Virus record (IMG/VR): IMGVR_UViG_3300031993_000018
Span: 25,614 to 89,613 of that record
DNA: 64,000 nt
Origin: a virus
Taxonomy: Duplodnaviria; Heunggongvirae; Uroviricota; Caudoviricetes
Reading direction: 5' to 3' (one strand)
The translations under genes were made by a program, and so were the position numbers. Position 1 is the stretch's first letter, and the number at the start of each line of letters is the position of its first letter. Shown here in pieces: positions 42,743-60,694 of this stretch. The notes beneath the pieces are model-generated. The model saw nothing but the letters and a program-made list of their open reading frames with translations, searched no databases and was not told the DNA's origin.

Positions 42743-42746
42743 ACAT

Positions 42747-42820: not shown

Positions 42821-42828
42821 CAAAAGAT

Positions 42829-43267: not shown

Positions 43268-43277
43268 CAAAACATAT

Positions 43278-43349: not shown

Positions 43350-43355
43350 CAAAGA

Positions 43356-44038: not shown

Positions 44039-44059
44039 CTAAGTTATAATAATTAAGGA

Positions 44060-44371: not shown

Positions 44372-44376
44372 AAATT

Positions 44377-44838: not shown

Positions 44839-44849
44839 TATAAAGAATT

Positions 44850-45080
44850 ATGAAAACTTGGATAATAGTATTGACAATTGCTTTCATCTTCTTGAAGCTT
44901 GTTGCAAGAGGGTTTGCAAACTACATCAGGAATGACAAGGAAGAGAGAGTGAAGTATTACTTTACCAGTGGTGCAACCCCACTTGGTGTGATACACGGAT
45001 TCATTTCTCTCTTTGGTACACTGGTAGGATTTGCTGATATAATCCTGATCATCATAATGGTTGCGAACAGATTGTTATAA
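44850..45080 (+). CDS. small membrane protein
   Basis: Two hydrophobic segments. Confidence 0.65.
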   Translation: MKTWIIVLTIAFIFLKLVARGFANYIRNDKEERVKYYFTSGATPLGVIHGFISLFGTLVGFADIILIIIMVANRLL

Positions 45081-45187
45081 ATCATTACATAAATATTTGG
45101 ATGTTTCAGATATTTTTGTTATATTTGTAACCAGAAAAGAGAAAGTTCTTTGAAATTTTTAAAATTTGTTCAACATAAATATAATAT

Positions 45188-45970: not shown

Positions 45971-45985
45971 ATGTGTTAATGATAT

Positions 45986-46295
45986 ATAGGTCTTGTTGAT
46001 ACTTTCAGGAAAAACTGTAGGACACGGGTTCGAGTCCCGCTACCTCCACAAATTTATATTTTTTATATGGGGGTATATTGGTTTTGACTGCTTTTAAGTA
46101 TGGGAAGAGGAGAGGTCTATCGCCAATAACTGGCAAAAACAACAATTTCTCTGTAAACTTTGGCCCTGTTGCACAAACAGCTGCTCCAAAGGCTATGATG
46201 GCTGCCGCTTAATCGTGGTTTCCCTGATTAGTAAGTACACTGGCCAGGCTGGTGTCACAGAAGGTTCTATCCATCTTGTCCAAAAAGATGGATCT
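45986..46295 (+). ncRNA. ssrA: circularly permuted (two-piece) tmRNA
   Basis: Acceptor piece ~45986-46048 (T arm, TACCTCC-A) precedes coding piece starting GGGGGTA at 46069 (G3:U70); helix 2 AAGTAT/ATACTT; tag ORF 46132-46212 (A)GKNNNFSVNFGPVAQTAAPKAMMAAA*. 3' end is approximate. Confidence 0.88.
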
Positions 46296-46460
46296 TTTGA
46301 AAGTTCTTTAAAATATTATATGGGTGGATTGTATGCAGTTCTTGATAAGTCTGTATCAGTACTTGCAGATACTGTCTTGAATTAAAGTAAAGAATAGGAT
46401 CCTGATTACAATAAGTTCCCACCCGCCCTTACAGTTATGGTTAATCTGTGAAAACCAAAT

Positions 46461-46653
46461 GGGTCAATAGCTCAATGGTAGAGCAGCGGACTGTATAAGG
46501 AGTGGTTTACCGGAACAAACCAACCTGGTATGGTCGAGTGGTCAAAGACGTAGGTTTAGAAAACCGGAGTAAGTTAAAAACTTGCAGACGTTGGTTCAAA
46601 TCCAACTATCAGGTCTAATCCGCAGGTTGTAGGTTCGAGCCCTACTTGGCCCG
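46461..46653 (+). tRNA. tRNA-Asn(GTT) interrupted by a 121-nt insert (46495-46615) containing a nested class II tRNA-like element (46524-46614)
   Basis: Exons join into a perfect cloverleaf GGGTCAA..GCGGA-CTGT|TAA-TCCGC..TTGGCCC-G. Confidence 0.85.
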
Positions 46654-46657
46654 CAAA

Positions 46658-46745
46658 GTACATAGGAAGTCCTGGTCGTGGTGCACGCTTATGTTAGGTT
46701 CGGGTTTGATCAACCCACAGAGGTTCGAGTCCTCTCTATGTACCA
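46658..46745 (+). ncRNA. tRNA-like RNA with G-1:C73 (His-like) acceptor end and degenerate anticodon arm
   Basis: GTACATAG/CTATGTAC-CA, T arm AGAGG-TTCGAGT-CCTCT, variable hairpin GGGTT..AACCC. Confidence 0.65.
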
Positions 46746-46762
46746 AATAATAAATATAATAT

Positions 46763-46853
46763 GGAGGAGTGGCAGAGTGGTTTATTGCAGAGGTCTTGAA
46801 AACCTCCGGGCGTGTTGAGCGCCCCGTCGGTTCGAATCCGGCCTCCTCCGCCA
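46763..46853 (+). tRNA. tRNA-Ser(TGA)
   Basis: Class II cloverleaf, encoded CCA. Confidence 0.95.
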
Positions 46854-47034
46854 GTATAACAAATTCCAAAAGTTTGTTATATTTATTAAGGTTTTGTTAT
46901 GTGTTTGTTTTAAGTTAAAGGTTCTAACCGCAACAATTACAAAAAAGATGCTGTTCACATTTTCCAAATGAACCTTGTTTTGTTTCAAACACACAACTTC
47001 AAACCAAATAAACATTTAAATTAATTAAAAAAGT

Positions 47035-47676
47035 ATGAAGAAATTTTTGGCGTTTCTTATGAGCCTTGTGCTCATTTTCGGTTTGAGTTCATGTAACTCT
47101 TGCACAAGAAACCAGACTACTCCTACTGAAGAGACCACACCGGCAGTTGCTGAGTTGGTTGTTGAGAATGTAATCTCTACTGACCGTCAGGCAATGTACC
47201 TTGCACATGGTGGTGACTACAGATGGTATGAGACTGGTGTTCAACTCAAGGACTGGCTTGATGAAGAGAATGATGGTACTATCGATATGGTAGTTAATGT
47301 TTTCCAGGTAATTGAGGAGTATGATTCAACAAGTTTTGATACCTATGTTTACAAGTATCAGCATTTTTCAGATGGTACTGTAAATGAAGATGGTGTTCAT
47401 GGTTTCTGGGTTGAGGATTATCCTCTTGAACAGGAAGTAATTAAGGTAACATTCAAGGAAGCTTACCAGAAGATCCAGGAAGTTAATCTCCCAAGACCTC
47501 ATTCACGTCAGGTTGTATTGAGAAAGCCTATCGGTCCTAAGGATTGCAATCCACAGTGGATATTTGGTAATCTCCATGAGCAGATTTGGGTTGATGCAGT
47601 TACAGGTGAAGTTACTAACAGTAACCCTGCATTTGATGGTCTGAATCTCGGTACTCCACTTGGTGAGTGGCCCTAA
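47035..47676 (+). CDS. lipoprotein of unknown function
   Basis: Signal peptide MKKFLAFLMSLVLIFGLSSC. Confidence 0.8.
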   Translation: MKKFLAFLMSLVLIFGLSSCNSCTRNQTTPTEETTPAVAELVVENVISTDRQAMYLAHGGDYRWYETGVQLKDWLDEENDGTIDMVVNVFQVIEEYDSTSFDTYVYKYQHFSDGTVNEDGVHGFWVEDYPLEQEVIKVTFKEAYQKIQEVNLPRPHSRQVVLRKPIGPKDCNPQWIFGNLHEQIWVDAVTGEVTNSNPAFDGLNLGTPLGEWP

Positions 47677-47763
47677 TAGAAACAATATAGGTTGAATGGT
47701 ACAACCTGAAGTTAAATATCCACAGGGAAAGGGTTAGCCCTGGAAGTTAAAGTCACCCAATAC

Positions 47764-47888
47764 TATGATGTGACAAGGAATAGGTATACTTGCGCCACGA
47801 GATAATATCAGATGGAAGAAGAGGAAGGGTATTCTTCATAAAAGTTGGACTAATTTAGTCAATGTGGGTTCGAGTCCCACTATCATAG
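47764..47888 (+). ncRNA. expanded tRNA-like RNA (125 nt)
   Basis: TATGATG/TATCATA-G acceptor, CAAG/CTTG D stem, GTGGG-TTCGAGT-CCCAC T arm, enlarged centre. Confidence 0.65.
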
Positions 47889-47895
47889 CAAATAT

Positions 47896-47969
47896 CGTGG
47901 GGTGCTAGCAGTGGTCAGCTAACTGGGCTCATAACCCAGAGGTCAGGGGTTCGAATCCCTTCCCCGCTA
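47896..47969 (+). tRNA. tRNA-fMet(CAT)
   Basis: C1 mismatch, GGG/CCC anticodon stem, loop CTCATAA. Confidence 0.9.
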
Positions 47970-47977
47970 CTAAACTT

Positions 47978-48115
47978 GCCAGTATAGGACAGTATATTGG
48001 ACATCTGTAACCTCATGGGAGGTCGCAAGAGAGAATGAAGGTAACATCTTCAACGTACCGGGTTAGTTCAAAGTAGAATACTCTTGTTATGTAAGTTCGA
48101 TTCTTACTATTGGCA
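47978..48115 (+). ncRNA. expanded tRNA-like RNA (138 nt)
   Basis: GCCAGTA/TATTGGC-A acceptor, GTAAG-TTCGATT-CTTAC T arm, several internal hairpins. Confidence 0.65.
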
Positions 48116-48144
48116 CAAAAAAAAATAAAAAAGTTTCAAAAATA

Positions 48145-48196
48145 TTTGGTAGTTTCAAATTTTTTTGTTATCTTTGTAGTGTTGAAAGTTCTTTGA
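48145..48196 (+). promoter_or_regulatory. sigma-A promoter plus boxA-like AGTTCTTTGA (near-identical block at 56651-56699)
   Basis: TTTG-N20-TATCTTTG followed by AGTTCTTTGA at 48187-48196. Confidence 0.8.
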
Positions 48197-48205
48197 TAGT
48201 TTTAA

Positions 48206-49285
48206 ATAAAACAAGGGTGGGTTTCTCATCCTTCCCAAGAAGCCTTCGGGTTGAGGGAGAAAGATAACCAGTGAATACATAAGCTGGGAAAGTCAGTAAG
48301 ATATTGCATAGTATCCCTGGCGGAGGGTTCAAATCCTCCCTGTAAGAAAACCAAGATGGTCAGCATATCCTGGAATGGCAGTACACTGTGAAAGGGGTAT
48401 GCGGAGGCTCTTACCAAGTCTCCTTGAGTGGTAACACTGACAAGAACCATTTTGCTTCCGGACAAAAAGATTACCGGTCTGATTGTCTGAATGACCAAAG
48501 TTTATTGATATCCAAGAGACTACACCAAGTCTTCCTAACAGGTGGTGCTGAGATTCCAGAAATGGTTGGATATTAGAATTAGTAGAATGAGTAACACAGA
48601 GGTGTGTGAAAGTAGAAAGGTGATGTATCTAAACCTCTCAAAAGGAGGCATGATAACAAGGGTAACCTCATCTTTCAATCGGTAAATGCTCAATGATTCA
48701 AATTGGATGTTGACCAAAGACAGAATAATTAGATTATTAAGCAAGCAAAAGTGTTACCCACACTGTAGGACAATACAGTTATGCTTCTGTAAGATGAAGC
48801 CTTATGGATCCCGCAAAGTGAAGTAAGAGTATCGCCAGTATGGACAATGCAAGTGGAGGCATCCACTCAACTCGGCAGAGGTCTTTGGCTTGAAAGCAGC
48901 TATGTAATACAGTGTAGTGACTATGGTAGTCTTGGTGGAAACACCATAAATCCACCTGTATCCGCTTCACCAATAGCAATGTTGGTGTGTGTAAATCTCA
49001 GGCGACTGGGACTTGTCCTGAAAAGGAAGAGAGTAGAGGCGGCGATTGGGGTCAACACTCAGCCCAAATCAATGAATTATTCAGAGTCGGTAACCAGTCC
49101 GGTATGGAAGAGCGAGACTTCCCTGGATAACAAAGTGATATTATAGAGGTACAAATTCTCCTGAATATATAGAACCACTCAGGAGGTTAATTCGAGGCCA
49201 GGGATATTACTGAAACAAATTCCCTTTTGGTTCACAGGGAATGGGAAGAGTGAGTTTGTAATCTGCGAGGTCGGGTTAGTTTTAT
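48206..49285 (+). ncRNA. candidate giant structured ncRNA (~1.08 kb; GOLLD/ROOL-like context)
   Basis: No credible ORF, visibly GC-richer than flanks, many hairpins, ends ATAAAAC/GTTTTAT, lies between a promoter/boxA and tRNA-Asp. Confidence 0.55.
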
Positions 49286-49295
49286 CTCTTCAAAT

Positions 49296-49369
49296 GGTGC
49301 GTTGGTGAAGTTGGTTATCATGCCACCCTGTCACGGTGGAGTTCACGGGTTCGAGTCCCGTACGCACCG
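49296..49369 (+). tRNA. tRNA-Asp(GTC)
   Basis: Loop CTGTCAC, G73. Confidence 0.95.
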
Positions 49370-49531
49370 CACATAAATATTATGTAAAGAACCATACCGC
49401 AATTTTAAACAAATTTCATTTTGATTGAAGAAACCATTGGTTCTTGTTTCGTTTCTTTGTTTAGAAAAACAAAGTGGCAGAGACTGGTGGAAACACCCCT
49501 CTTGTGAGTGGTAATCTCACATACAAAAACT

Positions 49532-49614
49532 TGCCGGCTATACCCTGGAGGTAAAGGTGTCACAGGCCTATGCATGGGCTGTTTGCAGTACTGGTTCGAA
49601 TCCAGTCTGGGTAG
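49532..49614 (+). ncRNA. non-canonical tRNA-like RNA
   Basis: T arm ACTGG-TTCGAAT-CCAGT, extended D stem ATACC/GGTGT, long central hairpin. Confidence 0.5.
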
Positions 49615-49667
49615 CAAATAAAAATGAAAATTGAATTTACATAAATAACTTATAAAGATTAAAAATT

Positions 49668-49884
49668 ATGATGACATTGCATACACATATTATGTTTATT
49701 GCGGGCAAGCCAGGTTGTTATCGTTTTTGGGAACAGAAGCAACTCGGACCTAAAGGTGTGTGGGTATGTCACCAGGATAAATAAGGATTAAACCAGGATA
49801 GGAAAGAAGGTACAGGAAATCCAACAAATATCAATAGAGACATCTCACACAAATCCAAAAAAAGATTTATGTGAGATTTTTTTT
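49668..49884 (+). promoter_or_regulatory. second leader peptide (49668-49784, MMTLHTHIMFIAGKPGCYRFWEQKQLGPKGVWVCHQDK) with antiterminator/terminator
   Basis: GTGTGGGTATGTC (49758-49770) pairs with GACATCTCACAC (49839-49850), which overlaps the terminator at 49842-49884; CATAAATA at 49640. Confidence 0.65.
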
Positions 49885-49892
49885 ATTAACAC

Positions 49893-49967
49893 TGGGTAGT
49901 ACGGTAATTGGTTCACCGGCTGCATTTGGGATGCAGACATATGCGAGTTCGAGTCTCGTCTACCCAA
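49893..49967 (+). tRNA. tRNA-Pro(TGG)
   Basis: Loop TTTGGGA. Confidence 0.88.
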
Positions 49968-49992
49968 CAAATATACAAAACAAAATAAGATT

Positions 49993-50238
49993 ATGGAGAC
50001 ACTCAAACAGATTGTGAAGGGAAGTGCAAAGTTGGAATGCATGAGGAGTGGTGGTGTCGCAGAATACATCATCACATCAGAGACAGGAAAAAGATATGTA
50101 TTGGACATAGACCTGTCAGACAAGGTGGACTGTGGAGAGAGTGCTTCATTTATGCCATACTATGAGAGAGCAATAATCCTGATGCGATGGATTCGCAGAG
50201 CAATGGAGAAGGGTGAATTGATAGAGTTAAATTCATAA
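49993..50238 (+). CDS. hypothetical protein
   Basis: 81-aa ORF with A-rich leader. Confidence 0.7.
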   Translation: METLKQIVKGSAKLECMRSGGVAEYIITSETGKRYVLDIDLSDKVDCGESASFMPYYERAIILMRWIRRAMEKGELIELNS

Positions 50239-50397
50239 ACACATCCGAGATGATCATAGGATGTGGGTTGGGAAGATGAGGATATGTCCGAAAAATTGCA
50301 TAAAGTAGGATGTATTTAGGTAGCGAGCCCCTCCCTGGTAGCCAAACAGGTAGTTTAAAGTGCTTAAGAACAGACCAATCATTGAATTATTAGATAT

Positions 50398-50472
50398 GCC
50401 GGGTTCTACTAATTGGAATAGGTACCCTGATTTTCAATCAGTGCAATATGGGTTCGAGTCCCATACCCGGTA
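50398..50472 (+). tRNA. tRNA-Glu(TTC)
   Basis: Loop TTTTCAA. Confidence 0.85.
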
Positions 50473-50477
50473 CAAAT

Positions 50478-50560
50478 GCGGATGTGGTGTAATGGTAGCC
50501 ACACTTGGTTCAGAGCTAAGCGGCCGAAAGGCCATATGGGTTCGAGTCCCTTCATCCGCA
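50478..50560 (+). tRNA. tRNA-Leu(CAG)
   Basis: Class II, loop TTCAGAG. Confidence 0.92.
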
Positions 50561-50565
50561 CACAT

Positions 50566-50639
50566 TGGGGGATCATCTAATAGAGTAAGGATACCACTCT
50601 GATACAGTGGAAATCCGGGTTCAAATCCCGGCCTCCCAA
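50566..50639 (+). tRNA. tRNA(GAT) on a Gln/Glu-like body
   Basis: U1:A72 TGGGGGA acceptor, TCATCTAAT D region, loop CTGATAC. Confidence 0.7.
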
Positions 50640-50673
50640 CAAAAGAAAGTTCTTTGACATATTGTACACATTT

Positions 50674-50749
50674 GGGTCTGTGGCAGAGATGGTCTATGCG
50701 CTGGACTGAAAATCCAGAGAAGGAGGTTCGAGTCCTCCCGGACCCACCA
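50674..50749 (+). tRNA. tRNA-Phe(GAA)
   Basis: Loop CTGAAAA, encoded CCA. Confidence 0.93.
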
Positions 50750-50957
50750 AGATTTGGGAAAAGGTTCTTGCATTGATGAAAGTAAATGACACCAGACACC
50801 TGATCAGTGAGGAAGTGTTGTTGAAATCGTCTAAAGTTGAGATGGGGAAAGTGTCATCAGTACTAGTCAAATGATGGGATGGAACTCAAGGAGACATATA
50901 CTCTGCCTGGCGTGGGAGTCAGGAGGTTCATCAGCAAGTAAAGTGGAATCTTGACCT

Positions 50958-51041
50958 GTGGGAGTGGCGTAACTGGTAGCCGCGTCGGTCTAAGAAGCCG
51001 ATCCCAGAAATGGGGTGAGAGTTCGAGTCTCTCTTTCCACA
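50958..51041 (+). tRNA. tRNA-Leu(AAG)
   Basis: Class II, loop CTAAGAA (A34). Confidence 0.88.
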
Positions 51042-51047
51042 CAATAT

Positions 51048-51130
51048 TGGTCCCGGCATCATAGTAGATGTCATGGAAGCTGCCTGATTCAGCAGGACTG
51101 AACAGTGGGGTTCGATACCCTGGGGACCAT
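51048..51130 (+). ncRNA. non-canonical tRNA-like RNA
   Basis: TGGTCCC/GGGACCA acceptor, 5-bp D stem, 8-nt central loop CTGATTCA. Confidence 0.5.
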
Positions 51131-51135
51131 CAAAT

Positions 51136-51258
51136 GTATATGTGAAGCAGATAGGATGTGCTACTACAAGAATTAGTAATCATTTGGATATTGCATACAT
51201 ATGTTCAGTAGAGATGAAAAGGATGTGGACTATGTGAGTTCGAATCTCATCATATACA
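51136..51258 (+). ncRNA. expanded tRNA-like RNA (123 nt)
   Basis: GTATATG/CATATAC-A acceptor, GTGAG-TTCGAAT-CTCAT T arm. Confidence 0.65.
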
Positions 51259-51263
51259 TAAAT

Positions 51264-51338
51264 GCTCCCGTAGCTGAGTTGGTTCAAAGCACCTGTCTCT
51301 TAAACAGGGGATCCTGGGTTCGAGTCCCAGTGGGAGTA
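51264..51338 (+). tRNA. tRNA-Lys(CTT)
   Basis: Loop CTCTTAA. Confidence 0.95.
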
Positions 51339-51348
51339 CAAAACAACT

Positions 51349-51637
51349 GGGGCACAGAGGAGATAAATCGGCTGGAAGCCAGCATTCTATGAAGTCATGA
51401 ATTCATAAAGTGTACTCTGTGTGAGGGTTTTTACCAGAGATTGCATCATGCAATTGATGAATGGGAGTTTCCCTTTTAAGTTCGAATCCACAGTGCTCCA
51501 CAAATGCCGGCTTATCACAGTATATAGGTGACTGTAGCCGCCCCGTACAGGCGGGTCTGGCCAACCGAAAGTGTACAGCTCGAGACAATGTATATGAGTA
51601 GAAGTCAGATATGGATGGTTCGATTCCTCCGATGGCA
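51349..51637 (+). ncRNA. two degenerate expanded tRNA-like RNAs (51349-51500, 51506-51637)
   Basis: GGGGCAC/GTGCTCC-A and GCC../..GGC-A ends, each preceded by a GTTCGA T-loop motif; T stems imperfect. Confidence 0.5.
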
Positions 51638-51867
51638 CAAAGTTTGTTATATTTTAATAAAGGGTTCTTTATGACAGTTTGAACCTTAGATGTTAATAAC
51701 TGTTAGTAGTCCTTTGCATCTTTATCCTACTATATCTTATGAAGATGTTTTAAGCCCAAAGTACACGGGAACGAAGATGGGATCTGCCTCTTAACAATGC
51801 ATACTGAATCCTCCAAAACGTAGGTTGGCACAGTTAGACCTCTGGGGTTATTCTAAAAGGTCATTAT

Positions 51868-51940
51868 GGACCATGTAGTGTAACGGCGAGCATATCACAT
51901 CTGCACTGTGATGGAGGGGTTCGAATCCCACATGTGTCCA
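51868..51940 (+). tRNA. atypical tRNA, loop TCTGCAC (Ala TGC, or shifted Cys GCA)
   Basis: D, anticodon and T arms present; bulged acceptor stem. Confidence 0.55.
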
Positions 51941-52215
51941 CAAATGAATATTTGAGGTTCCAGAAGGCTTCCGTAATGTGGCATAGTCGGAGGAGACACT
52001 GGAGATGGATAAACATGGAAATTCGGGCTACCGGGTGAGGCAGTGTTAGACGAGGAGGCTTGCTGGAATAAGCAGTCCGGGTAGAATATTCATCACAAAA
52101 CCACAGAGTGTCCAGAGTGTCGAAGCATTGGTTGGTATGATGCTTTAAAAGTTTAAACTCTACTCCGAAAGTGGGCGACATATTCGAGACTATACTCTGT
52201 GTGACAAAACTTTTC

Positions 52216-52291
52216 TATGGTATCTTCTAGTGGTCCAGGAAGTCCGAGGCTAACAGCGGTAGGGACAGAGGTTCGAATCCTCTTACCATAG
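52216..52291 (+). tRNA. Gln-like tRNA with enlarged anticodon region containing CTA
   Basis: U1:A72, G73, TCTTCTAGTGGTCCAGGA D arm; three extra nt in the anticodon arm. Confidence 0.55.
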
Positions 52292-52313
52292 CAAATTAAA
52301 TAATTCATATAAT

Positions 52314-53021
52314 ATGAAATTAGGAAATTTAAAGTATCATTATTTTTATAAGATAACCAACAATATAAATGGTCATTTTTATTATGGTGTTCATAACACA
52401 AATAATTTAGATGATGGTTATATGGGTAGTGGTTTAAAATTACAAGAAGCATATAAAAAATATGGTATTGAAAACTTCACTAAAGAAATATTAAAGTTCT
52501 TTGACACATCTGAAGATGCATTTAAATATGAAAGTGAGATTGTTACAATTGATTTAATAAAGTCAAAGAAATGTTATAATATTCAACTTGGTGGTAAATC
52601 CATTAACACTTCTGGTTTAATTGTTGTTATTGATAAAAATAATATAAAAACATTAATACCAAAAGATGATGACAAAATAATAAAAGGTAATGTGAAAATT
52701 TATTCTCCTTTAAAAAATAAATTGGTTGTAAAATATAAAAATGATAATGATTATTTTTTAATTAATAGTGATGAATATGATTCTAACATTTATGAAACAA
52801 GTTGGACAAATAGACATCACACACAAGAATCAAAAAGTAAAATAAGAAAGACTTTAACACCTCAAAATTCTAATAATTCACACATATGGATTAATAAAAA
52901 TGGGATAGTTAAATATTTAGATAAAAGAAAATTAGATGAATATTTAAATGATGGATGGACATTGGGAAGAAGTGGATATAAACCAAGAAAGGGATGTAGA
53001 GGTAAGAAAATAGAAATATAA
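52314..53021 (+). CDS. free-standing GIY-YIG (Seg-like) homing endonuclease, paralog of 45188
   Basis: YFYKITNNINGHFYYGVH...DDGYMGSG; very AT-rich. Confidence 0.88.
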   Translation: MKLGNLKYHYFYKITNNINGHFYYGVHNTNNLDDGYMGSGLKLQEAYKKYGIENFTKEILKFFDTSEDAFKYESEIVTIDLIKSKKCYNIQLGGKSINTSGLIVVIDKNNIKTLIPKDDDKIIKGNVKIYSPLKNKLVVKYKNDNDYFLINSDEYDSNIYETSWTNRHHTQESKSKIRKTLTPQNSNNSHIWINKNGIVKYLDKRKLDEYLNDGWTLGRSGYKPRKGCRGKKIEI

Positions 53022-53024
53022 TTT

Positions 53025-53111
53025 GGGAAGGTTGAGCAAATGGTTGAGCTCATCGGTCTGTAAAACCGACACTATGAAACACTGTGGGTTCGAGTCCCAC
53101 CCTTCCCACCA
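53025..53111 (+). tRNA. tRNA-Tyr(GTA)
   Basis: Class II, encoded CCA. Confidence 0.93.
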
Positions 53112-53114
53112 AAT

Positions 53115-53185
53115 GCAGGATTAGTTTAATGGTAGAATGTCAGCCCTCCAAGCTGAATGTGGGAGTTCGATTCTCCTATCCTGCT
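53115..53185 (+). tRNA. tRNA-Gly(TCC), C33 variant
   Basis: Loop CCTCCAA, U73. Confidence 0.88.
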
Positions 53186-53191
53186 CTAAAT

Positions 53192-53266
53192 ACCGATGTA
53201 GCTCAGTTGGTCCAGAGCAGTGGACTCATATTCCACAGGTCATTGGTTCGATTCCAATCATCGGTA
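53192..53266 (+). tRNA. tRNA-Met(CAT)
   Basis: Loop CTCATAT. Confidence 0.92.
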
Positions 53267-53281
53267 CAATAAATATTATAT

Positions 53282-53368
53282 AGGTCGGTGGCCGAGTGGT
53301 CGAAGGCAGCGGTCTCCAAAACCGCCAAGATGGTAACATCTTCGAGGGTTCGAATCCTTCCCGGCCTG
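53282..53368 (+). tRNA. tRNA(CCA, Trp anticodon) with a Ser-like class II body
   Basis: Loop CTCCAAA; long variable arm AAGATG-GTAA-CATCTT; G73. Confidence 0.85.
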
Positions 53369-53378
53369 CTTGAGGAAT

Positions 53379-53450
53379 TGGACTATTGTGTAATGGTTAG
53401 CACATCAGATTTTGGATCTGACAGTCTGGGTTCGAATCCCGGTAGTCCAG
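53379..53450 (+). tRNA. tRNA-Gln(TTG)
   Basis: U1:A72, loop TTTTGGA, G73. Confidence 0.95.
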
Positions 53451-53550
53451 CAAAGTAAGAGTGTGGAAATAACTTGTAACTCAAGTAGAGAGTTTCCAGT
53501 AAATGGGTGGTGAGAAGAGTAATGAACTTACAATTTAGCCTTACTGAAAT

Positions 53551-53621
53551 TGGGATATAGTATAAGGGTAGTACGTTTGACTCTGGATCAAAAGGTGTGG
53601 GTTCGAATCCTGCTATCCCAG
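53551..53621 (+). tRNA. tRNA-Gln(CTG)
   Basis: U1:A72, loop CTCTGGA, G73. Confidence 0.93.
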
Positions 53622-53627
53622 CAAAAT

Positions 53628-53698
53628 GTCGGGGTGGCCGAGGGGCTAGGCAGCGGTCTGCAAAACCGCCTACGCAGGTTCGAATCCTGTCTCCGACT
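53628..53698 (+). tRNA. tRNA-Cys(GCA)
   Basis: Loop CTGCAAA, U73. Confidence 0.95.
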
Positions 53699-53770
53699 CT
53701 AAACTCTGGAGCATACCGCCAGTACGGAAGTGGAAAAGAGGTACTGCTCTGTTTCCTACCAGAGTTAAAT

Positions 53771-53842
53771 GTCCCTGTGGTGTAATGGACAGCATACCAG
53801 ACTACGGATCTGTTGGAGAGGGTTCGAGTCCTTCCAGGGATA
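53771..53842 (+). tRNA. tRNA-Arg(ACG)
   Basis: Loop CTACGGA. Confidence 0.92.
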
Positions 53843-53876
53843 CTAAAATTTTGTTATATTTAATGTATAACATCTT

Positions 53877-53948
53877 GCCGGGGTAGCTCAGTGGTAGAGT
53901 ACATCTTTGGTAAGGATGAGGTCAAGAGTTCAAATCTCTTCTTCGGCT
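53877..53948 (+). tRNA. tRNA-Thr(GGT)
   Basis: Loop TTGGTAA. Confidence 0.95.
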
Positions 53949-53953
53949 CAAAT

Positions 53954-54025
53954 GCAGTGTTCGTATAATGGTTATTATATAGCCTTGCCAAGGCTGAGAT
54001 GGGAGTTCGATTCTCCTACACTGCT
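53954..54025 (+). tRNA. tRNA-Gly(GCC)
   Basis: Loop TTGCCAA. Confidence 0.92.
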
Positions 54026-54026
54026 C

Positions 54027-54213
54027 AAAGTATACATAAAACGTTAATCCCGAGAATGATAGGTTACCACAAGGCAGTAGGTGTAAAAGAATAATTACTG
54101 TTTAACAAGTCTGCAACAGGGATCCCGGTAGTAATACTGAGTGTTCAGCGAAATCTGAAATAGAGTGATAACTAAAGGTGAAAGTCCTTACAAACGTCCT
54201 ATCTGTATACTTT
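54027..54213 (+). ncRNA. unidentified ~187-nt structured RNA
   Basis: Perfect 10-bp terminal helix AAAGTATACA/TGTATACTTT between two tRNAs. Confidence 0.55.
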
Positions 54214-54218
54214 TATAT

Positions 54219-54295
54219 GGTGATGGTGGCCGAGTGGTATAGGCGCATGCCTGTGGAGCATGTTTACGTGGGTTCGATCCCCACCCTTCACCCCA
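54219..54295 (+). tRNA. tRNA-His(GTG)
   Basis: G-1:C73, loop CTGTGGA, encoded CCA. Confidence 0.95.
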
Positions 54296-54308
54296 AATTA
54301 CAAAAGTT

Positions 54309-54632
54309 ATGGACAAAGATTTTAAAAAGAAGTTCCTGACAGACACTGATGAGACAGGAAGGTTTATTGTAAAGTCATTGAAGACAGGTAAGACCTACTT
54401 TGTTGAACCGGTGAACCAAGGTGTAAGAACAAACTGGGGAGACCTGGATCCAGTCACAAGAAAGATGACCGGAAGTTATGGAGAGAAATACAAGGGAAGT
54501 GTAACTCCTGATGAGTCTCTCATAACAGAGGAAAATGGATTTGATAAGGTATATACATTAAGTCCTGGTGAATCTCCTCTTTCTTACATTGATATGATTG
54601 ATGATGAGTATTTTAAAAAGATGAATAAATGA
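54309..54632 (+). CDS. hypothetical protein (followed by a 41-aa membrane peptide at 54629-54754)
   Basis: ORF track plus hand translation. Confidence 0.75.
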   Translation: MDKDFKKKFLTDTDETGRFIVKSLKTGKTYFVEPVNQGVRTNWGDLDPVTRKMTGSYGEKYKGSVTPDESLITEENGFDKVYTLSPGESPLSYIDMIDDEYFKKMNK

Positions 54633-54750
54633 AACCGAGAATTTACAGAAGACACAGGGATGACACTAATCTCAGGACTAATATGAACATCATATTGGCA
54701 ATTGGTGGAACTATAATTTTATTGGGTGTATTTTATTTGATGTTCATAAT

Positions 54751-55689
54751 ATGAGTAAAAGGATATTGGTGACCGGTGGTGCTGGATTCATAGGTTCAAA
54801 CCTTTGTAAGAAACTTGTGAATGAAGGTAATGATGTCATATGTCTGGACAACTTCTATACAGGAAGAAAGGACAATATATATGAACTGATAGGTCAGAAG
54901 AATTTTGAACTTGTTAGACATGATGTATGTCAGCCTTACCTGGCGGAAGTTGATGAGATATACAACCTTGCATGTCCCGCTTCTCCGATACATTACCAGA
55001 ATGACCCCATCCAGACAACAAAGACATCTGTCCTGGGTGCATATCATATGCTGGGATTGGCAAGGAGGACAAAGGCAAAAATACTCCAGGCATCTACAAG
55101 TGAGGTCTATGGTGACCCGACTGTCCATCCACAGACAGAAGATTACTGGGGAAATGTGAACTGTCACGGTTTCAGGTCCTGTTATGATGAAGGAAAAAGA
55201 TGTGCCGAATCATTGTTCTTTGACTACAACCGTATGCATGGGATAAGGATAAAGGTGATAAGGATATTCAACACCTATGGTCCCAATATGGCAGTCAATG
55301 ATGGAAGGGTGATTTCAAACTTCATCAACCAGGCACTCAATGATGAGGATATCACGATATATGGTGACGGAAGTCAGACCAGGTCTTTCCAGTACATTGA
55401 TGACCTGATAAATGGTATGACAAAGATGATGAATACTGATGATTCATTCACAGGTCCGGTCAATATAGGAAACCCTCAGGAATATACAGTACTGGAACTG
55501 GCAAACAAGGTGATAGACCTGACAGGTTCAAAGAGCAAGATAGTATTCTGTCCTCTGCCTTTTGATGATCCAAAGAAGAGGAAACCGGATATAACACTGG
55601 CAAAGAAGGAATTAGACTGGTCACCAAAGGTTGATGTTGATGATGGGTTGATTAAGACAATAGAATATTTCAAGTCATTGAGAAAGTAA
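54751..55689 (+). CDS. UDP-glucuronate decarboxylase (UDP-xylose synthase), extended SDR
   Basis: [44 protein letters not shown]. Confidence 0.92.
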
Positions 55690-55695
55690 TATTCT

Positions 55696-55777
55696 GGGAG
55701 TGTCGCATAGTGGCAATTGCAAGGGTCTGTAACACCCTCGCCTTCGGGCTTCGGAGGTTCGAGTCCTCCCGCTCCCA
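55696..55777 (+). tRNA. tRNA-Tyr(GTA)
   Basis: Class II, loop CTGTAAC. Confidence 0.93.
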
Positions 55778-55793
55778 CAAAAACTTTAAGGTT

Positions 55794-56126
55794 ATGAAAA
55801 AGACAGTTAAGTTTTTCAAACAGGATGACAAATGGTATGCAGACATTCCAAACCACACACTGGATGAAAATGAGATGGTGATGGGTTCTGATATTATGTT
55901 GGAGATGTTTGCGAACGGTGCGAAGGAACTCACATTAACATTGTCTGATGATGATATGTCTGATGCATTCATAACATTGAGAAGAAAGGAACATGATGAG
56001 GATGGTGCCTGGTACACAGTGTTCGGGACAGACTTTGAGGATGTTTGGATATGTAATGTGACACATGATGTCTTCGGTGAACACCCTGAATGTATCTACA
56101 TCAGTAAGATAACTCAACATAAATAA
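55794..56126 (+). CDS. hypothetical protein
   Basis: MKKTVKFFKQDDKWYADIP...; start moved because the track ORF overlaps tRNA-Tyr. Confidence 0.75.
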   Translation: MKKTVKFFKQDDKWYADIPNHTLDENEMVMGSDIMLEMFANGAKELTLTLSDDDMSDAFITLRRKEHDEDGAWYTVFGTDFEDVWICNVTHDVFGEHPECIYISKITQHK

Positions 56127-56213
56127 GGGGATGTGCTGAAACTGGCAGCCAGGCCAGACTTAGGATCTGGTGTCCGGAAGGACGTATGGGTTCGAGTCCC
56201 TTCATCCCTACCA
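56127..56213 (+). tRNA. tRNA-Leu(TAG)
   Basis: Class II, encoded CCA. Confidence 0.95.
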
Positions 56214-56290
56214 CAGTCTTTCGGGACTTTAAAGAGTTGTAGAAATACAATCCATCGAGGTCAGTCCAGAACCAGTTAATCTGGACATTT

Positions 56291-56373
56291 GCGGCAGTGG
56301 CGGAATGGTAGACGCGCCACTTTGAGGGGGTGGTCCGGGCAACCGGGTATGGGTTCGAGTCCCATCTGCCGCA
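56291..56373 (+). tRNA. tRNA-Leu(GAG)
   Basis: Class II, loop TTGAGGG. Confidence 0.93.
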
Positions 56374-56474
56374 CAATAAAAAGGGTGGGCCAATCGGAAT
56401 AAGGCAGGGTAAGTCTCCGGTTCTTCTTTGATGAGGGTGCACCAGTAATCAAAGTTTCTTAAATTACCCAACCC

Positions 56475-56548
56475 GGGCAAGTAACTCAGTTGGTTAGAGT
56501 ACCACTCTGATACAGTGGTGGTCGTAGGTTCGAGTCCTACCTTGCCCA
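56475..56548 (+). tRNA. tRNA-Ile(GAT)
   Basis: Loop CTGATAC. Confidence 0.93.
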
Positions 56549-56556
56549 CAACAAAT

Positions 56557-56631
56557 GCCCCTATCATACTAATAGGTTTAGGTGGCCACCCTCTCAAGGT
56601 GGAGATACGGGTTCGAATCCCGTTGGGGGTA
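56557..56631 (+). tRNA. tRNA-Glu(CTC)
   Basis: Loop CTCTCAA. Confidence 0.9.
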
Positions 56632-56890
56632 CAAAAAATATTCAAAAATATTTGGTAGTTTCAAATTTTTTTGTTATCTTTGTACTGTAAGTTCATTGAA
56701 ATATTGATGCACATATAGGAACAACAAGATGGGGTACCTATAAGTCTCACATAAGGATTCTAGATTGAGGGGGTGTGAGAGAAGGGTACAAATAATGTTA
56801 AAGAGGATTCCCGACCCTTAATAGGAGGAGAAAAGCGCTCTCTCCGATCCTCTGACAACAGTGACTACGGAAATCTGTTGTGTTCTTTAT

Positions 56891-56973
56891 GCCCAGGTGG
56901 GGGAATGGTAGACCCAGCTGTCTCAAAAGCAGCCGACCATCCGGTCATGTGAGTTCGAGTCTCACCCTGGGCA
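56891..56973 (+). tRNA. tRNA-Leu(CAA)
   Basis: Class II, loop CTCAAAA. Confidence 0.95.
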
Positions 56974-57587
56974 CTTTGATGAAAATCCTAGGTGGGTGGT
57001 ATCTATAGCAGACTCCTTTAAAATGGGGAAGGAGGAAAGATACCGAATACTGGACAGGTGGTTTCGTCTAGCATCCTGGTGAGGGGGAATGTCCTCACAA
57101 GACCACTTGAGAATGGTGACTACGGAATTCCATTTGTTTTCATTTTTTATGGTGGGGTTATCAAACTTAACCACCCGCATCCTTGAAGAGAATGTGTTGC
57201 CGAGCCGTGTCAAGTTTATCTTGTATCCGGAGGAGTGAAACTTCCAAGTTGACAGGTTATTGCACTCGCCTGTCAATTATTACTGAACCCACCAGTAAGA
57301 CTGTTAAGCAGTATATCAGTATGGTACATGGGAGTTGTGCATGAGCTGGCTGAAGAGTAGTTTCCGGATATGGTGTTGAAACCCGGGGAAAATGAAAAGT
57401 AAGTCAATAGCAATAGGGAACCGGTGGAGTTACTGTGACTTTGTAATTTTGTCCATTACAGAACCGGGGAAATAATGGAACACCAATGTGGCTAAAATGG
57501 TAGGGATTCACAAAAATCAGTGAAGGTGGCCACACACCTGGACAATCACTGATTACGAAAATTATTTTTTATAAATATATAACAGTT

Positions 57588-57659
57588 GGCGCCCTCGTCT
57601 ATCGGTTAGGACACGAGATTTTCATTCTCGGAAGAGGGGTTCGATTCCCCTGGGCGCTA
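57588..57659 (+). tRNA. tRNA-Glu(TTC)
   Basis: Loop TTTTCAT. Confidence 0.93.
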
Positions 57660-57719
57660 CTAATCAACCGGAAGGTTGTTTACTATCCAGTCAATAATTC
57701 ATGAATAAACCTGGGTAGA

Positions 57720-57793
57720 GGTCTGATAGCTCAGATGGTGAGAGTACCACACTGATACTGTGGAGGTCACAAGTTCAAGTCTTGTTCAGACTA
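57720..57793 (+). tRNA. tRNA-Ile(GAT)
   Basis: Loop CTGATAC. Confidence 0.92.
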
Positions 57794-57803
57794 CGAAACA
57801 TAT

Positions 57804-57903
57804 CGCGGGGGAGTGAAACGGATAAGAACATCCCACAAGTTTGTTCAAAGATCATTACAGGCTCATAACCTGTAGATACTGGCTTCGACTGCCAGACCCG
57901 CAA
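57804..57903 (+). tRNA. fMet-like tRNA(CAT) with a ~28-nt hairpin insertion in the D loop
   Basis: CGCGGG/CCCGCA with C1:A72, loop CTCATAA, insert GAACA..TGTTC between GTGA and TCAT. Confidence 0.7.
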
Positions 57904-57907
57904 CAAA

Positions 57908-58065
57908 GACCTTTATGAAGCAAGTGGAATTCGGTATTTCAACCTATGCAAGTTATCAGAGTCAGTGTACAATGAATCTGAAGAACAGTATAAAAGTCAA
58001 TACTGATAAGTCTTCTGTGGAAATTCAAGCCCAGTTGTCCTGGTTCGAGCCCAGGTAAAGGTCCA
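57908..58065 (+). ncRNA. expanded tRNA-like RNA with G-1:C73 (158 nt)
   Basis: GACCTTTA/TAAAGGTC-CA, T arm CCTGG-TTCGAGC-CCAGG. Confidence 0.65.
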
Positions 58066-58087
58066 TATACAACAAAAAACAACAAAC

Positions 58088-58231
58088 ATGGCAACAGTTA
58101 AAAACACATCATTCTCAAGAAGAGAAGTCAAGCATAAGAAACGCCCTGGAATCATTTCCAAGTGTAAGTCTTCAAAGAACAAGACATCAAAACACTATGT
58201 GAAACCATACAGAGGTCAGGGCAGACCATAA
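58088..58231 (+). CDS. 47-aa highly basic peptide
   Basis: MATVKNTSFSRREVKHKKRPGIISKCKSSKNKTSKHYVKPYRGQGRP*; A-rich leader; not in the track. Confidence 0.7.
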   Translation: MATVKNTSFSRREVKHKKRPGIISKCKSSKNKTSKHYVKPYRGQGRP

Positions 58232-58238
58232 AAACCTT

Positions 58239-58320
58239 CGGGGTGTAACCGGTAGTTGGTTTCCGACCAGTTTTGGGAACTGGGCCGCAAGGCGCGCAGG
58301 TTCGAGTCCTGTTACCCCGA
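58239..58320 (+). tRNA. tRNA-Pro(TGG) with a long variable arm
   Basis: C1:G72, loop TTTGGGA, extra hairpin GCC-GCAA-GGC. Confidence 0.85.
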
Positions 58321-58323
58321 CAA

Positions 58324-58505
58324 CACCTGGTGGACAAATGGTAAAGTCGCCCTATTGGGTAGGGAGGTGTGTAATAGAAGTTTTCCGGCAGTGAGGAGTA
58401 ATGGAGTCGCGATCCACCGAAGGCACGGGAACGAGAATAAGCACAGGCCTGGATGTATTCGCGATGCTGAAGGGTGAATGGGGGTTCAATTCCCCTTCGA
58501 GGTGA
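58324..58505 (+). ncRNA. expanded tRNA-like RNA (182 nt) with a ~110-nt variable-region insert
   Basis: CACCTGG/CGAGGTG-A, canonical D arm GAC-AAATGGTAAA-GTC, CCCTA-TTGGG-TAGGG mini anticodon arm, GGGGG-TTCAATT-CCCCT T arm. Confidence 0.7.
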
Positions 58506-58812
58506 CAAAGATTGTTGTGGTGTTGCAGAACTTTAAAAGGAACAACACAGGTGTAGAGGGAAACTTTAATGGGTAATTTTTTTTACCAGCTAACCTTCAG
58601 AGACCTCACCAAGGATGATGCTTCATCATGGAGGGCACTCCAAGATGACAAAAAGATAGTTACAGTGAGAGTCTTATTGAGAACTGTTCGACCCAGGAGG
58701 AGTGATGTTTTAGAGCATGTTTGACTGTACGGGGATAAACGGTGGCGACCGGTGAGTTTTTCTGGGCACTTCTCAGAACAAAAACAAAGAAAATTAACAA
58801 AACAGTCTTTAA

Positions 58813-58887
58813 GGGTGTTTAGCGCAGCTGGTTCAGAGCATCTCGTTTACACCGAGAAGGTCGGGGGTTCGAATCCCTCATCACCCA
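58813..58887 (+). tRNA. tRNA-Val(TAC)
   Basis: Loop TTTACAC. Confidence 0.93.
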
Positions 58888-59025
58888 CAAAGAGATACTT
58901 GAAGAAGCTACGGGTGTAAGATACTAGTAAAGATTACACATAGGGGCCTACCATATTGTAGTTTATGTGTTCTAAAACATCAAGTAACAACATAGAGGAC
59001 TTCGAATTAATCTATGGCTCTTAAT

Positions 59026-59097
59026 GCCGATGTAGCTCAGTGGCAGAGCAGGGGTTTTGTAAACCTCAGGTCGAGATCTCGGTATTCTCCATCGGCT
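59026..59097 (+). tRNA. tRNA-Thr(TGT) with a non-canonical T loop (CTCGGTA)
   Basis: Rest of the cloverleaf is normal; loop TTTGTAA. Confidence 0.75.
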
Positions 59098-59155
59098 CAA
59101 AATTATTGAACTTGAACTTTCATAAATACTTTATAAGGATTATAAAAGTTCAACT

Positions 59156-59749
59156 ATGACAAACTGGGAAGATAGAAAAGATACCCTGGTAGATTTGATA
59201 CAGGTTCAGAAATTACCATATGAACAGATTGGTAGAATGTTCAATTGTTCAGGTAATAACATCAAGAAAGTTGCAAAAAAACTTGGTATTGAATTAGTCC
59301 AGAAAAGAAAGATAAATGAAAGTGAAACTTTCAATAAAGGAAAAGGTAATAAGGGTATCTGTTTAAACTGTGGATGTGAATATAACATTTACAGGTCTTC
59401 AAAAGGAAAGTTCTGCTCAAACAAATGTCAGGGAGAGTATGAATATAAAGAGTTCATTGAAAAATGGAAAAAGGGTGAAGAATCTGGATTGACAGGAGAA
59501 TATGGAATTTCTCGTCACATAAGGAGATACCTTTTTAATAAGTACAAATGTAGTTGTCAAATTTGTGGATGGAGTGAAGTAAATCCATTTACTGGTAATG
59601 TTCCTTTGGAAATTCATCATATAGATGGCAATTACGTAAATAATAAAGAGGAAAATTTACAACTCCTTTGTCCAAATCATCACTCACTGACTGAAACCTT
59701 TAAGAACCATAATAAAAATGGTAGAAAAGGTAGAAGGAAGTACAATTGA
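59156..59749 (+). CDS. free-standing HNH homing endonuclease
   Basis: CLNC..CSNKC Zn motif; CQICG..LEIHHIDGN..NN..NLQLLCPNHH; CATAAATA at 59121. Confidence 0.92.
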   Translation: MTNWEDRKDTLVDLIQVQKLPYEQIGRMFNCSGNNIKKVAKKLGIELVQKRKINESETFNKGKGNKGICLNCGCEYNIYRSSKGKFCSNKCQGEYEYKEFIEKWKKGEESGLTGEYGISRHIRRYLFNKYKCSCQICGWSEVNPFTGNVPLEIHHIDGNYVNNKEENLQLLCPNHHSLTETFKNHNKNGRKGRRKYN

Positions 59750-59755
59750 TAATTT

Positions 59756-59910
59756 GCCCCAGTGGCTCAATGGTAGAGCAACGCACTTGTATAGATGGCG
59801 AAATTCCATTTTAAAAACTATGACTACATCAAAAGGCTCATAGGAGTGAGGGTTCGATTCCCTTATGTAGTCCAATGCGTAGGTTGCTGGTTCGATTCCG
59901 GCCTGGGGCT
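59756..59910 (+). tRNA. tRNA-Thr(TGT) interrupted by an 83-nt insert (59791-59873) containing a nested mini tRNA-like element (59822-59872)
   Basis: Exons join into GCCCCAG..ACGCA-CTTGT|AA-TGCGT..CTGGGGC-T. Confidence 0.85.
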
Positions 59911-59968
59911 CAAGAAAAAGGATTTTGGCCTGTTAGTTAAAATCCATATAAAATAAAAAGTCAAATTT

Positions 59969-60589
59969 ATGTCAAAATTAATGAAACCAGAAGAGAGGGA
60001 TCAGCAGATCAAGGATTTGATGATTACCATTAGAAGGAACACACAGGGTTCCAAATGTATTGAGATCTTTGAAAATCTTTTGAATGAGGTTGAGGACAAA
60101 GAGTTTGTTGATACTGTTATAGCAGACACTCACAAATTCATCTCTGAGTTCTCAAGACTATGTAAGGATGTGGACAATATGAAGAATCTGGATTATATCT
60201 CCAGAATCCTCACACATGAGTTCATACTTCCCCACAAGTATTTCCGTAAGTCACAGAATATGGCGAAGGTATACTTGCTGATGTATGACAGACTTGTGAA
60301 GATATATTCACATCCTGTATATGATGTTGAGAAAGGTATCATCCTTTCCAATGTCAACTTCCTGGGTACAATTCACCACAAGGAAGACCTCACTGCAAAT
60401 GATGTGATTGCAGTGTTCAAGTATTTCGGTGACCTTTCAGGACTTTCCGTTGACCAGGTAAAGGAAAAGAAGGAAGAAGCCAGGATGGTCATCTTACTCT
60501 ACAATTATCTGCCTGCCATAGTGAAGGCACTTATTCAGACCAAGAGGAGAAGCTTGAATCTTGACAAGAACTCCAAGAAGTTTGAATAA
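59969..60589 (+). CDS. hypothetical protein
   Basis: 206-aa ORF. Confidence 0.75.
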   Translation: MSKLMKPEERDQQIKDLMITIRRNTQGSKCIEIFENLLNEVEDKEFVDTVIADTHKFISEFSRLCKDVDNMKNLDYISRILTHEFILPHKYFRKSQNMAKVYLLMYDRLVKIYSHPVYDVEKGIILSNVNFLGTIHHKEDLTANDVIAVFKYFGDLSGLSVDQVKEKKEEARMVILLYNYLPAIVKALIQTKRRSLNLDKNSKKFE

Positions 60590-60617
60590 ATAACAGAACT
60601 AACAGGCTGGAATCTTT

Positions 60618-60694
60618 GGGGGATTAGCTCAGCTGACTAGAGCACCTGATTTGCACTCAGGAGGTCATGGGTTTGAATCCCATATCCTCCACCA
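60618..60694 (+). tRNA. tRNA-Ala(TGC)
   Basis: G3:U70, loop TTTGCAC, encoded CCA. Confidence 0.95.

Follow-up and report, generated by a model that had tools for sequence, protein, structure and literature searches.

Non-decoding tRNA-shaped RNAs in the tRNA island of an uncultured rumen megaphage as candidates for a natural tRNA scaffold

We analyzed a 64,000-nucleotide (nt) stretch of viral DNA, hereafter the window (positions 25,614 to 89,613 of IMG/VR record IMGVR_UViG_3300031993_000018), which comes from an uncultured rumen megaphage (record length 153.6 kb, 38% G+C). The window includes a transfer RNA (tRNA) island (42083-60694) with all its genes on the + strand, comprising 42 tRNAs called by ARAGORN, a permuted transfer-messenger RNA (tmRNA), a GOLLD-like RNA and homing-endonuclease-like open reading frames (ORFs; two GIY-YIG and one HNH). 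Lying among these genes are seven elements, e1 to e7, in which tRNA-like ends enclose a large insert of unrelated hairpins, here called the cargo. Our analysis indicates that e1-e7 are real non-decoding tRNA-shaped RNAs, with e4 as a marginal member and with conservation demonstrated for e1, e2, e5 and e7, and favors the interpretation, at a probability of about 0.6, that they constitute a natural tRNA scaffold: non-decoding RNAs with a functional cargo, released by the enzymes that process tRNAs.

To locate such elements, we scanned the whole 153.6-kb record for a 5-base pair (bp) T stem closing a TTCRANN loop, with a 7-bp acceptor helix that abuts it directly and closes 66-260 nt upstream. 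The strict scan returned 50 matches on the + strand versus none on the - strand, including, besides the true tRNAs, e1 (47764-47887), e2 (47978-48114), e3 (51136-51257) and e6 (57909-58062), together with two tRNAs that have long inserts in the anticodon loop (at 46461 and 59756). An earlier inspection of the letters alone, the sequence-only reading, had listed at least seven elements with an acceptor-type helix and a GTTCRA T loop, and we found the tRNA-like terminal helix and this T-loop motif at all seven positions. The acceptor and T arms of e1, e2, e3 and e6 are canonical, and those of e5 and e7 depart from this by one mismatch or bulge that is kept in their homologues. The large multi-hairpin inserts were likewise borne out, the elements measuring 123-181 nt overall with a cargo of 70-130 nt.

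The elements share a layout that runs, from 5' to 3', through an acceptor stem, a D arm, an anticodon-like hairpin, a multi-hairpin domain at the position of the variable arm, a T arm and the trailer N73-CAA. By direct reading, six of the seven have T8-G9 and, in their D arm, a GG loop, so that the whole tRNA elbow is present in them. The hairpin at the anticodon position is shrunken in e2, e5 and e7, and e1 has none; a canonical anticodon arm (5-bp stem, 7-nt loop, U33 and a conserved anticodon) was found in none of e1, e2, e5 and e7. The trailer N73-CAA follows five of the seven elements and 21 of 40 ARAGORN tRNAs, against a CAA background of 2.2%, and an encoded CCA is rare among these tRNAs (5 of 40). 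Of the other two elements, e6 ends in C-CAT and e3 in A-TAA. Position 73 is A in four of the seven. The cargos are mutually unrelated, apart from a 5' part common to e2 and e5, and the word "family" used in the sequence-only reading was consequently too strong. Similarity of the D arms to those of tRNAs, used to assign each scaffold to a parental isotype, gave no clear winner.

The first two elements, like the other five, are on the + strand. Element e1 (47764..47888, 125 nt) lies 90 nt past a 213-amino acid (aa) ORF and 8 nt ahead of a tRNA-Met. It has the acceptor stem TATGATG/TATCATA, T8 and G9, and a D arm CAAG/CTTG with the loop GAATAGGTATA; three cargo hairpins follow, and then the T arm GTGGG-TTCGAGT-CCCAC and G73-CAA. 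Element e2 (47978..48115, 138 nt; single-sequence fold z-score -2.9) combines the acceptor GCCAGTA/TATTGGC and the D arm ACAG/CTGT with a short anticodon-like hairpin (loop of 4-6 nt), a multi-hairpin cargo, the T arm GTAAG-TTCGATT-CTTAC and A73-CAA.

Three elements lie close together further downstream. Element e3 (51136..51258, 123 nt), a cassette private to this phage, has the acceptor GTATATG/CATATAC, T8 and G9, a D arm AGC/GCT with the loop AGATAGGATGT, its cargo, and then the T arm GTGAG-TTCGAAT-CTCAT and A73-TAA. Element e4 (51349..51500, 152 nt), also private, is the weakest member of the set; it combines an end helix GGGGCAC/GTGCTCC of 7-8 bp and the motif GTTCGAATCC with stable cargo hairpins (fold z -2.9) and A73-CAA. 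In element e5 (51506..51637, 132 nt), the acceptor helix is 6 bp long and contains one G-A mismatch; the D arm is ACAG/CTGT, the anticodon-like hairpin has the loop CYGTACA (C33 in the window), and the T arm, which is bulged, is followed by A73-CAA. Both the mismatch and the bulge of the T stem are retained in its homologues, and its cargo includes a hairpin whose 11-nt loop contains CTCGAG.

Finally, e6 and e7 are found towards the end of the island. Element e6 (57909..58063, 155 nt; fold z -2.7), the third private cassette, has the acceptor ACCTTTA/TAAAGGT (8 bp with an outer G-C pair), the T arm CCTGG-TTCGAGC-CCAGG and C73-CAT. Element e7 (58324..58504, 181 nt) directly adjoins the 3' side of a tRNA-Pro(TGG). 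Its acceptor helix of 7 bp includes one G-G mismatch, its D arm GAC/GTC is class II-like with the loop AAATGGTAAA, and one additional base precedes the T stem of the T arm, which is followed by A-CAA. The cargo of e7, about 110 nt at the position of the variable arm, is two-armed, and TCGCGA occurs in both of its hairpin loops (58407 and 58459).

None of these RNAs corresponds to an Rfam family. Rfam searches at the gathering score and at E<=10 returned no family that accounts for any element, in line with the sequence-only reading, which had named a match to a known family as a possible refutation. ARAGORN, run with or without introns, calls none of e1-e7. The Rfam tRNA model RF00005 was rejected as an identity: the elements are absent from its 41 matches at the gathering score, and at E<=10 only a partial match of 21.6 bits appeared (48057-48115).

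To examine the conservation of the elements, we searched IMG/VR and JGI metagenomes with two flanking genes, which yielded 89 related loci. The alignment of e1 (five distinct sequences) has 25 consensus pairs, 10 of them compensatory, and an alignment-fold z of -5.1; that of e2 (four distinct sequences) has 44 pairs, 8 of them compensatory, and a z of -4.8; and that of e7 (four distinct sequences) has 48 pairs, 17-18 of them compensatory, and a z of -6.9. For all three, 0 of 200 column shuffles reached the observed compensatory count, and the signal was lost when pairing partners were shifted by 1-3 columns. The compensatory changes span the acceptor, D and T stems as well as the cargo helices, and the acceptor helix of e7 in the related locus L020 is maintained through fully compensatory changes. 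The three available e5 sequences (the window's and those of L001/L036 and L088) are 86-89% identical, and their changes, mainly G-U exchanges and a single compensatory T-stem change, fit the fold; this sample is too similar for a covariation test. The check proposed in the sequence-only reading, covariation across related phages, was hence positive for e1, e2 and e7, with e5 too uniform to be tested and e3, e4 and e6 having no homologues in the relatives searched.

The part of these RNAs that would have to decode behaves differently from the rest. Among its four homologues, the anticodon-like loop of e7 is 5, 6 or 7 nt long and unrelated in sequence, and the remainder of the element is highly conserved; the corresponding loop of e2 also varies, from 4 to 6 nt. 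The 5-nt anticodon loop that had been noted at 58324 is correct for the window, but the homologues have 6-7 nt there.

Comparison with the relatives also revealed differences in content and position. Elements e3, e4 and e6 are missing as whole units at the syntenic sites of L001, the nearest relative, and e3 found no homologue in the related loci searched by BLAST. In L020, the e7 homologue directly follows the gene for the 213-aa protein, and 10 kb separate that gene from e7 in the window. These differences suggest that the units come and go and change places as cassettes, in the manner of island tRNA genes. Exact-motif scans of IMG/VR for the cores of e1, e5 and e7 returned only two or three relatives that were already known, such a scan for e7 found nothing in 185,579 prokaryote genomes, and megablast against 50,697 deposited phage records gave two trivial tRNA matches only. 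L001 also carries a private element of its own (L001:14499-14658), which is missing in the window; it is 160 nt long and of the same design, its acceptor stem having 7 bp and its T arm reading CTTGG-TTCGACT-CCAAG, and it has the trailer A-CAA and a fold z of -2.0.

Conserved loops of two cargos are palindromic. The 153.6-kb record avoids 6-nt palindromes genome-wide (median observed/expected 0.31), to the point that ACGCGT, CACGTG, CCATGG, CCGCGG and GGGCCC have zero copies in it. The e5 loop nevertheless holds the sole CTCGAG of the record, invariant within the loop of a conserved hairpin, and the loops of e7 hold two of its four TCGCGA sites, both invariant across the four homologues, with flanking stems that covary. 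Rare palindromes are concentrated in the RNA island, with 27 of 80 occurrences in 12% of the genome. The GC-rich palindromic loops of e5 and e7 point to loop-loop (kissing) contacts, which could form within a molecule or between copies. A search of the phage record for antisense targets of the conserved loops gave an 11-mer as the best result, which is the chance expectation.

The elements are embedded in the tRNA array of the phage, on the tRNA strand and at tRNA-like spacing, with gaps of 5-9 nt to adjacent units. The motif TTTG-N17-23-TAnnTTTG, which we take to be a Bacteroidetes-type promoter, occurs 14 times in the window versus 3 expected; within the island it is found only at 41910, 45096, 48145 and 56651, and directly upstream of no element. 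Since only four island positions carry it, the island appears to be transcribed in a few long units. Metatranscriptomes from four rumen or sheep runs were available as assembled contigs, which carry neither RNA ends nor levels. Their bins for e3-e6 have a depth of 0-5, one RNA contig of depth 3 (47777-48008) covers e1, the tRNA-Met and the start of e2, and e7 is represented by its 3' third only. Outside the island, a 474-aa ORF (19953-21377, + strand) encodes a tRNA nucleotidyltransferase of the CCA-adding type (PF01743, 92.6 bits at window positions 20031-20420). This phage enzyme is a likely supplier of the 3' CCA, which the elements do not encode.

Taken together, the compensatory changes in frame and cargo, the tRNA-like spacing in the array without promoters of their own, the trailer shared with the tRNAs and a layout resembling that of phage T4 RNA C (see below) argue for a natural tRNA scaffold. 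For e1, e2, e5 and e7 this interpretation is well founded; e3, e4 and e6 may be included by analogy only. From the observed structure, conservation, array context and trailer, we infer the enzymatic steps and the activity of the cargo as follows. The array and its promoters are seen in the sequence, and e1-e7 would be transcribed from these few Bacteroidetes-type promoters together with the adjacent tRNAs. To judge from their tRNA-like ends, RNase P would then cleave at +1, and a 3' nuclease would trim the CAA trailer back to N73, after which CCA would be added, possibly by the phage nucleotidyltransferase. The tRNA frame, consisting of the acceptor/T minihelix and the elbow formed by D loop and T loop, would provide exact ends and stability, with the cargo as the active part. 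The proposal in the sequence-only reading of a scaffold that borrows tRNA processing fits the covariation, the array, the trailer and the T4 comparison.

The closest precedent is RNA C of phage T4 (rnaC, species 1 RNA). The T4 record lists it as a small stable RNA, and its gene lies in the tRNA cluster of that phage, with the segB GIY-YIG endonuclease as a neighbor. When folded in this analysis, this RNA of 139 nt showed a terminal helix between its 5' and 3' ends, a canonical T arm CCGGG-UUCGAAU-CCCGG next to the 3' end and an insert of about 95 nt that is rich in hairpins. It is thus like e1-e7 in its location in a tRNA cluster, its end helix, the adjacent T arm and the large non-tRNA insert, and unlike them in the two U-U mismatches of its end helix and in having no clear D arm that we could see. 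T4 RNA D, the other small stable RNA of that cluster, shows no T arm in its fold. BLASTN of the elements against T4 rnaC aligned the T loop only (9-13 nt), and the likeness is therefore one of design and not of descent. T4 has one or two such RNAs, whereas the present phage has seven or more. RNA C is presumably released by RNase P, and we know of no function for it.

Other systems share parts of this design. In engineered tRNA scaffolds, a cargo RNA is placed within the tRNA body, and the tRNA-processing enzymes of the cell provide exact ends and stability. In these constructs the cargo replaces the anticodon stem, whereas in e1-e7 it is mostly found at the position of the variable arm, with a stub of the anticodon arm left in e2, e5 and e7. 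The method for recombinant-RNA expression rests on the same principle (PMC3753655). The phage's own tmRNA (45957-46303, + strand), the sole tmRNA called by ARAGORN and Rfam, likewise joins a tRNA-like acceptor/T domain to a large structured non-tRNA domain in the same island. A tmRNA, however, has a G3:U70 pair, pseudoknots and a reading frame for the tag but no D stem, whereas e1-e7 have no G3:U70 and no called tag. Y RNAs of the YrlA type (RF02553; PMC4201824) are also non-decoding, have a tRNA-like elbow and occur in phages, but their ends form a Ro60-binding stem opposite the tRNA-like part, whereas the ends of e1-e7 form the acceptor stem. The only RF02553 match (53786-53928; 21.2 bits, E 1.9) lies over true tRNAs, with nothing significant on the elements, and no Ro60/TROVE gene (PF05731) was found in this phage record, which is 64% complete.

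Lak megaphages of gut Bacteroidota, which carry large tRNA sets, have oversized tRNA-like genes with highly conserved inserts, and the insert of their tRNA-Thr(TGT) is itself tRNA-like (Devoto et al., 10.1101/356790). Two tRNAs of the island are of this type, with anticodon-loop inserts of 121 nt (46461-46654) and 83 nt (59756-59911) that ARAGORN recognizes in intron mode. The insert of the first contains a whole class II tRNA-like gene (46524-46615). Excision from the anticodon loop restores a tRNA in the Lak genes, whereas no single excision restores a cloverleaf in e1-e7.

Several observations weigh against the scaffold interpretation. The alignments comprise only 3-5 distinct sequences each, from one clade of rumen phages, and e3, e4 and e6 each rest on one sequence: searches of five related whole records returned no homologue of them, matching only the embedded tRNA-Lys. 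By direct reading, the T stem of e4 pairs at two of five positions, and the single-sequence fold z is unremarkable for e1, e3 and e5. In L001 and L021, e2 is a 46-nt allele made of the acceptor, 15 nt and the T arm, minus about 90 nt of the interior, so the e2 cargo is dispensable in these two relatives. The enrichment of rare palindromes across the whole island means that their retention reflects a constraint at the RNA level, not specifically kissing. Processing, mature ends, CCA addition and abundance are predictions from the DNA.

Part of this could be explained if the elements were decaying tRNA genes that have lost the anticodon arm and taken up junk inserts, their acceptor and T arms persisting as punctuation at which the transcript is cut. 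The privacy of e3, e4 and e6, the broken T stem of e4, the cargo-less e2 alleles, the varying content and order of the cassettes and the presence of other degenerate tRNA-like units in the island (43969, 46659, 49541, 51048 and 52216) would all agree with decay. For e3, e4 and e6 it is a possibility, because the relatives searched hold no homologue of them. Junk, however, would not account for cargo helices that e1, e2 and e7 maintain by compensatory changes around invariant cargo loops, nor for palindromic sites retained despite genome-wide avoidance; moreover, the adjacent tRNAs have RNase P sites of their own and therefore do not need a neighbor's helix. The claim that the elements are not simple pseudogenes thus stands for e1, e2 and e7, by virtue of the changes in both frame and cargo; as an explanation of the set, we regard decay as unlikely. 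Less probable still is that they are intron-containing tRNA genes of the Lak kind, from which removal of the insert would yield a normal decoding tRNA. The two island tRNAs with anticodon-loop inserts, the oversized pseudo-tRNAs with "enigmatic introns" in Prevotella megaphages (Devoto et al., 10.1101/356790) and the e7 hairpin of the window, which can be read as a loop AUUGGGU (UGG), are in its favor. But the intron mode of ARAGORN that returns 46461 and 59756 returns none of e1-e7, the Rfam tRNA model stays below threshold on every element, and no group I intron family matches in Rfam. Neither a U33 nor an anticodon is conserved in the e7 loops, and direct reading of e1 finds no complementary 3' strand for an anticodon stem. 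In its naturally shortened form e2 is a minihelix, so that loss of the insert does not yield a tRNA. Brute-force deletion of internal segments followed by ARAGORN was too permissive, its positive controls likewise giving mixed isotypes, and was not used.

It is also conceivable, though we consider it about as unlikely as decay, that the elements are mimics acting through their tRNA end, either as decoys or sponges for host enzymes or toxins that attack the acceptor or elbow, or as RNAs charged by a synthetase that acts independently of the anticodon (the Leu, Ser or Ala type) and used outside decoding like tmRNA. Decoys for tRNA-targeting defenses and for uncharged-tRNA sensors had been a candidate role in the sequence-only reading too. 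Such a role would suit the complete upper half of the tRNA, elbow included, the A73 of four elements, the class II-like D stem of e7 (3 bp) and the heavy investment of this phage in tRNA supply (42 tRNAs, tmRNA and CCA enzyme). Against it, direct reading finds G3:U70 in no element, there is no tag reading frame, the only tmRNA call of ARAGORN being that at 45957, and a pure decoy has no need of diverse conserved cargos. A further, rather improbable version of the scaffold interpretation would treat the tRNA frame as a handle and the cargos as assembly or docking modules, namely the invariant palindromic loops UCGCGA (twice in e7) and CUCGAG (e5), which might build homodimers or higher RNA-only assemblies or dock with the very abundant GOLLD-like RNA 500 nt downstream of e2. 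If true, this would for the first time connect the tRNA islands of phages functionally with the giant ornate RNAs found alongside them.

The usual view of phage tRNA islands is that they are kits for codon supply or anti-defense, and genes in them that are rejected by tRNA finders go unnoticed or are labeled pseudogenes. In the present island, compensatory evolution marks several such rejected genes as working RNAs that are unable to decode. We found no systematic description of such RNAs in the literature searched, and they have no Rfam family. Our analysis suggests that nature employs the tRNA-scaffold trick of RNA engineers, and the conserved and diverse set in megaphages, together with its palindromic loops, offers concrete experimental handles.

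Our analysis also identified other RNAs and genes in the island. The GOLLD-like RNA (48266-49072) begins just past the Bacteroidetes-type promoter at 48145-48176 and matches RF02032 at 48615-49065 (77 bits, E 9e-19; the gathering score is 150). Its contigs reach a depth of 400-1200 in each of the four metatranscriptomes, versus 1-20 for flanking genes. A T-arm-like hairpin, GAGGG-TTCAAAT-CCTCC (48323-48339), lies within its transcribed 5' part. The promoter-like sequence ahead of it, TTTGGTAGTTTCAAATTTTTTTGTTATCTTTG, is 32 nt long and recurs identically at 56651-56682, where it precedes a second non-coding stretch with RNA contigs at 56722-57144 (depth 77-195) and no Rfam match.

Around e6 and e7, three further features were found. 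A tRNA-Met(CAU)-like gene (57803-57903) was missed by ARAGORN; its anticodon arm (loop CTCATAA) and T arm are normal, its D region is about 30 nt larger, and it has a C1xA72 mismatch, as in bacterial initiator tRNA. This gene is kept in L001, L041 and L028, and its T stem shows compensatory changes. Between e6 and the tRNA-Pro, a small ORF (58088-58231) encodes a very basic 47-aa protein and is conserved in L001, where 80% of its nucleotides are identical. Between e7 and a tRNA-Val lies a 305-nt block (58508-58812) that L001 lacks; its RNA contigs have a depth of 83-203, and its fold z of -0.95 is unremarkable.

Finally, the island holds five tRNA-like units of normal length (43969-44037, 46659-46743, 49541-49614, 51048-51130 and 52216-52291) whose acceptor and T arms are perfect or nearly so but whose anticodon arms are aberrant. 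None of them is called by ARAGORN and only that at 52216 passes Rfam (36 bits); several are kept in L001.

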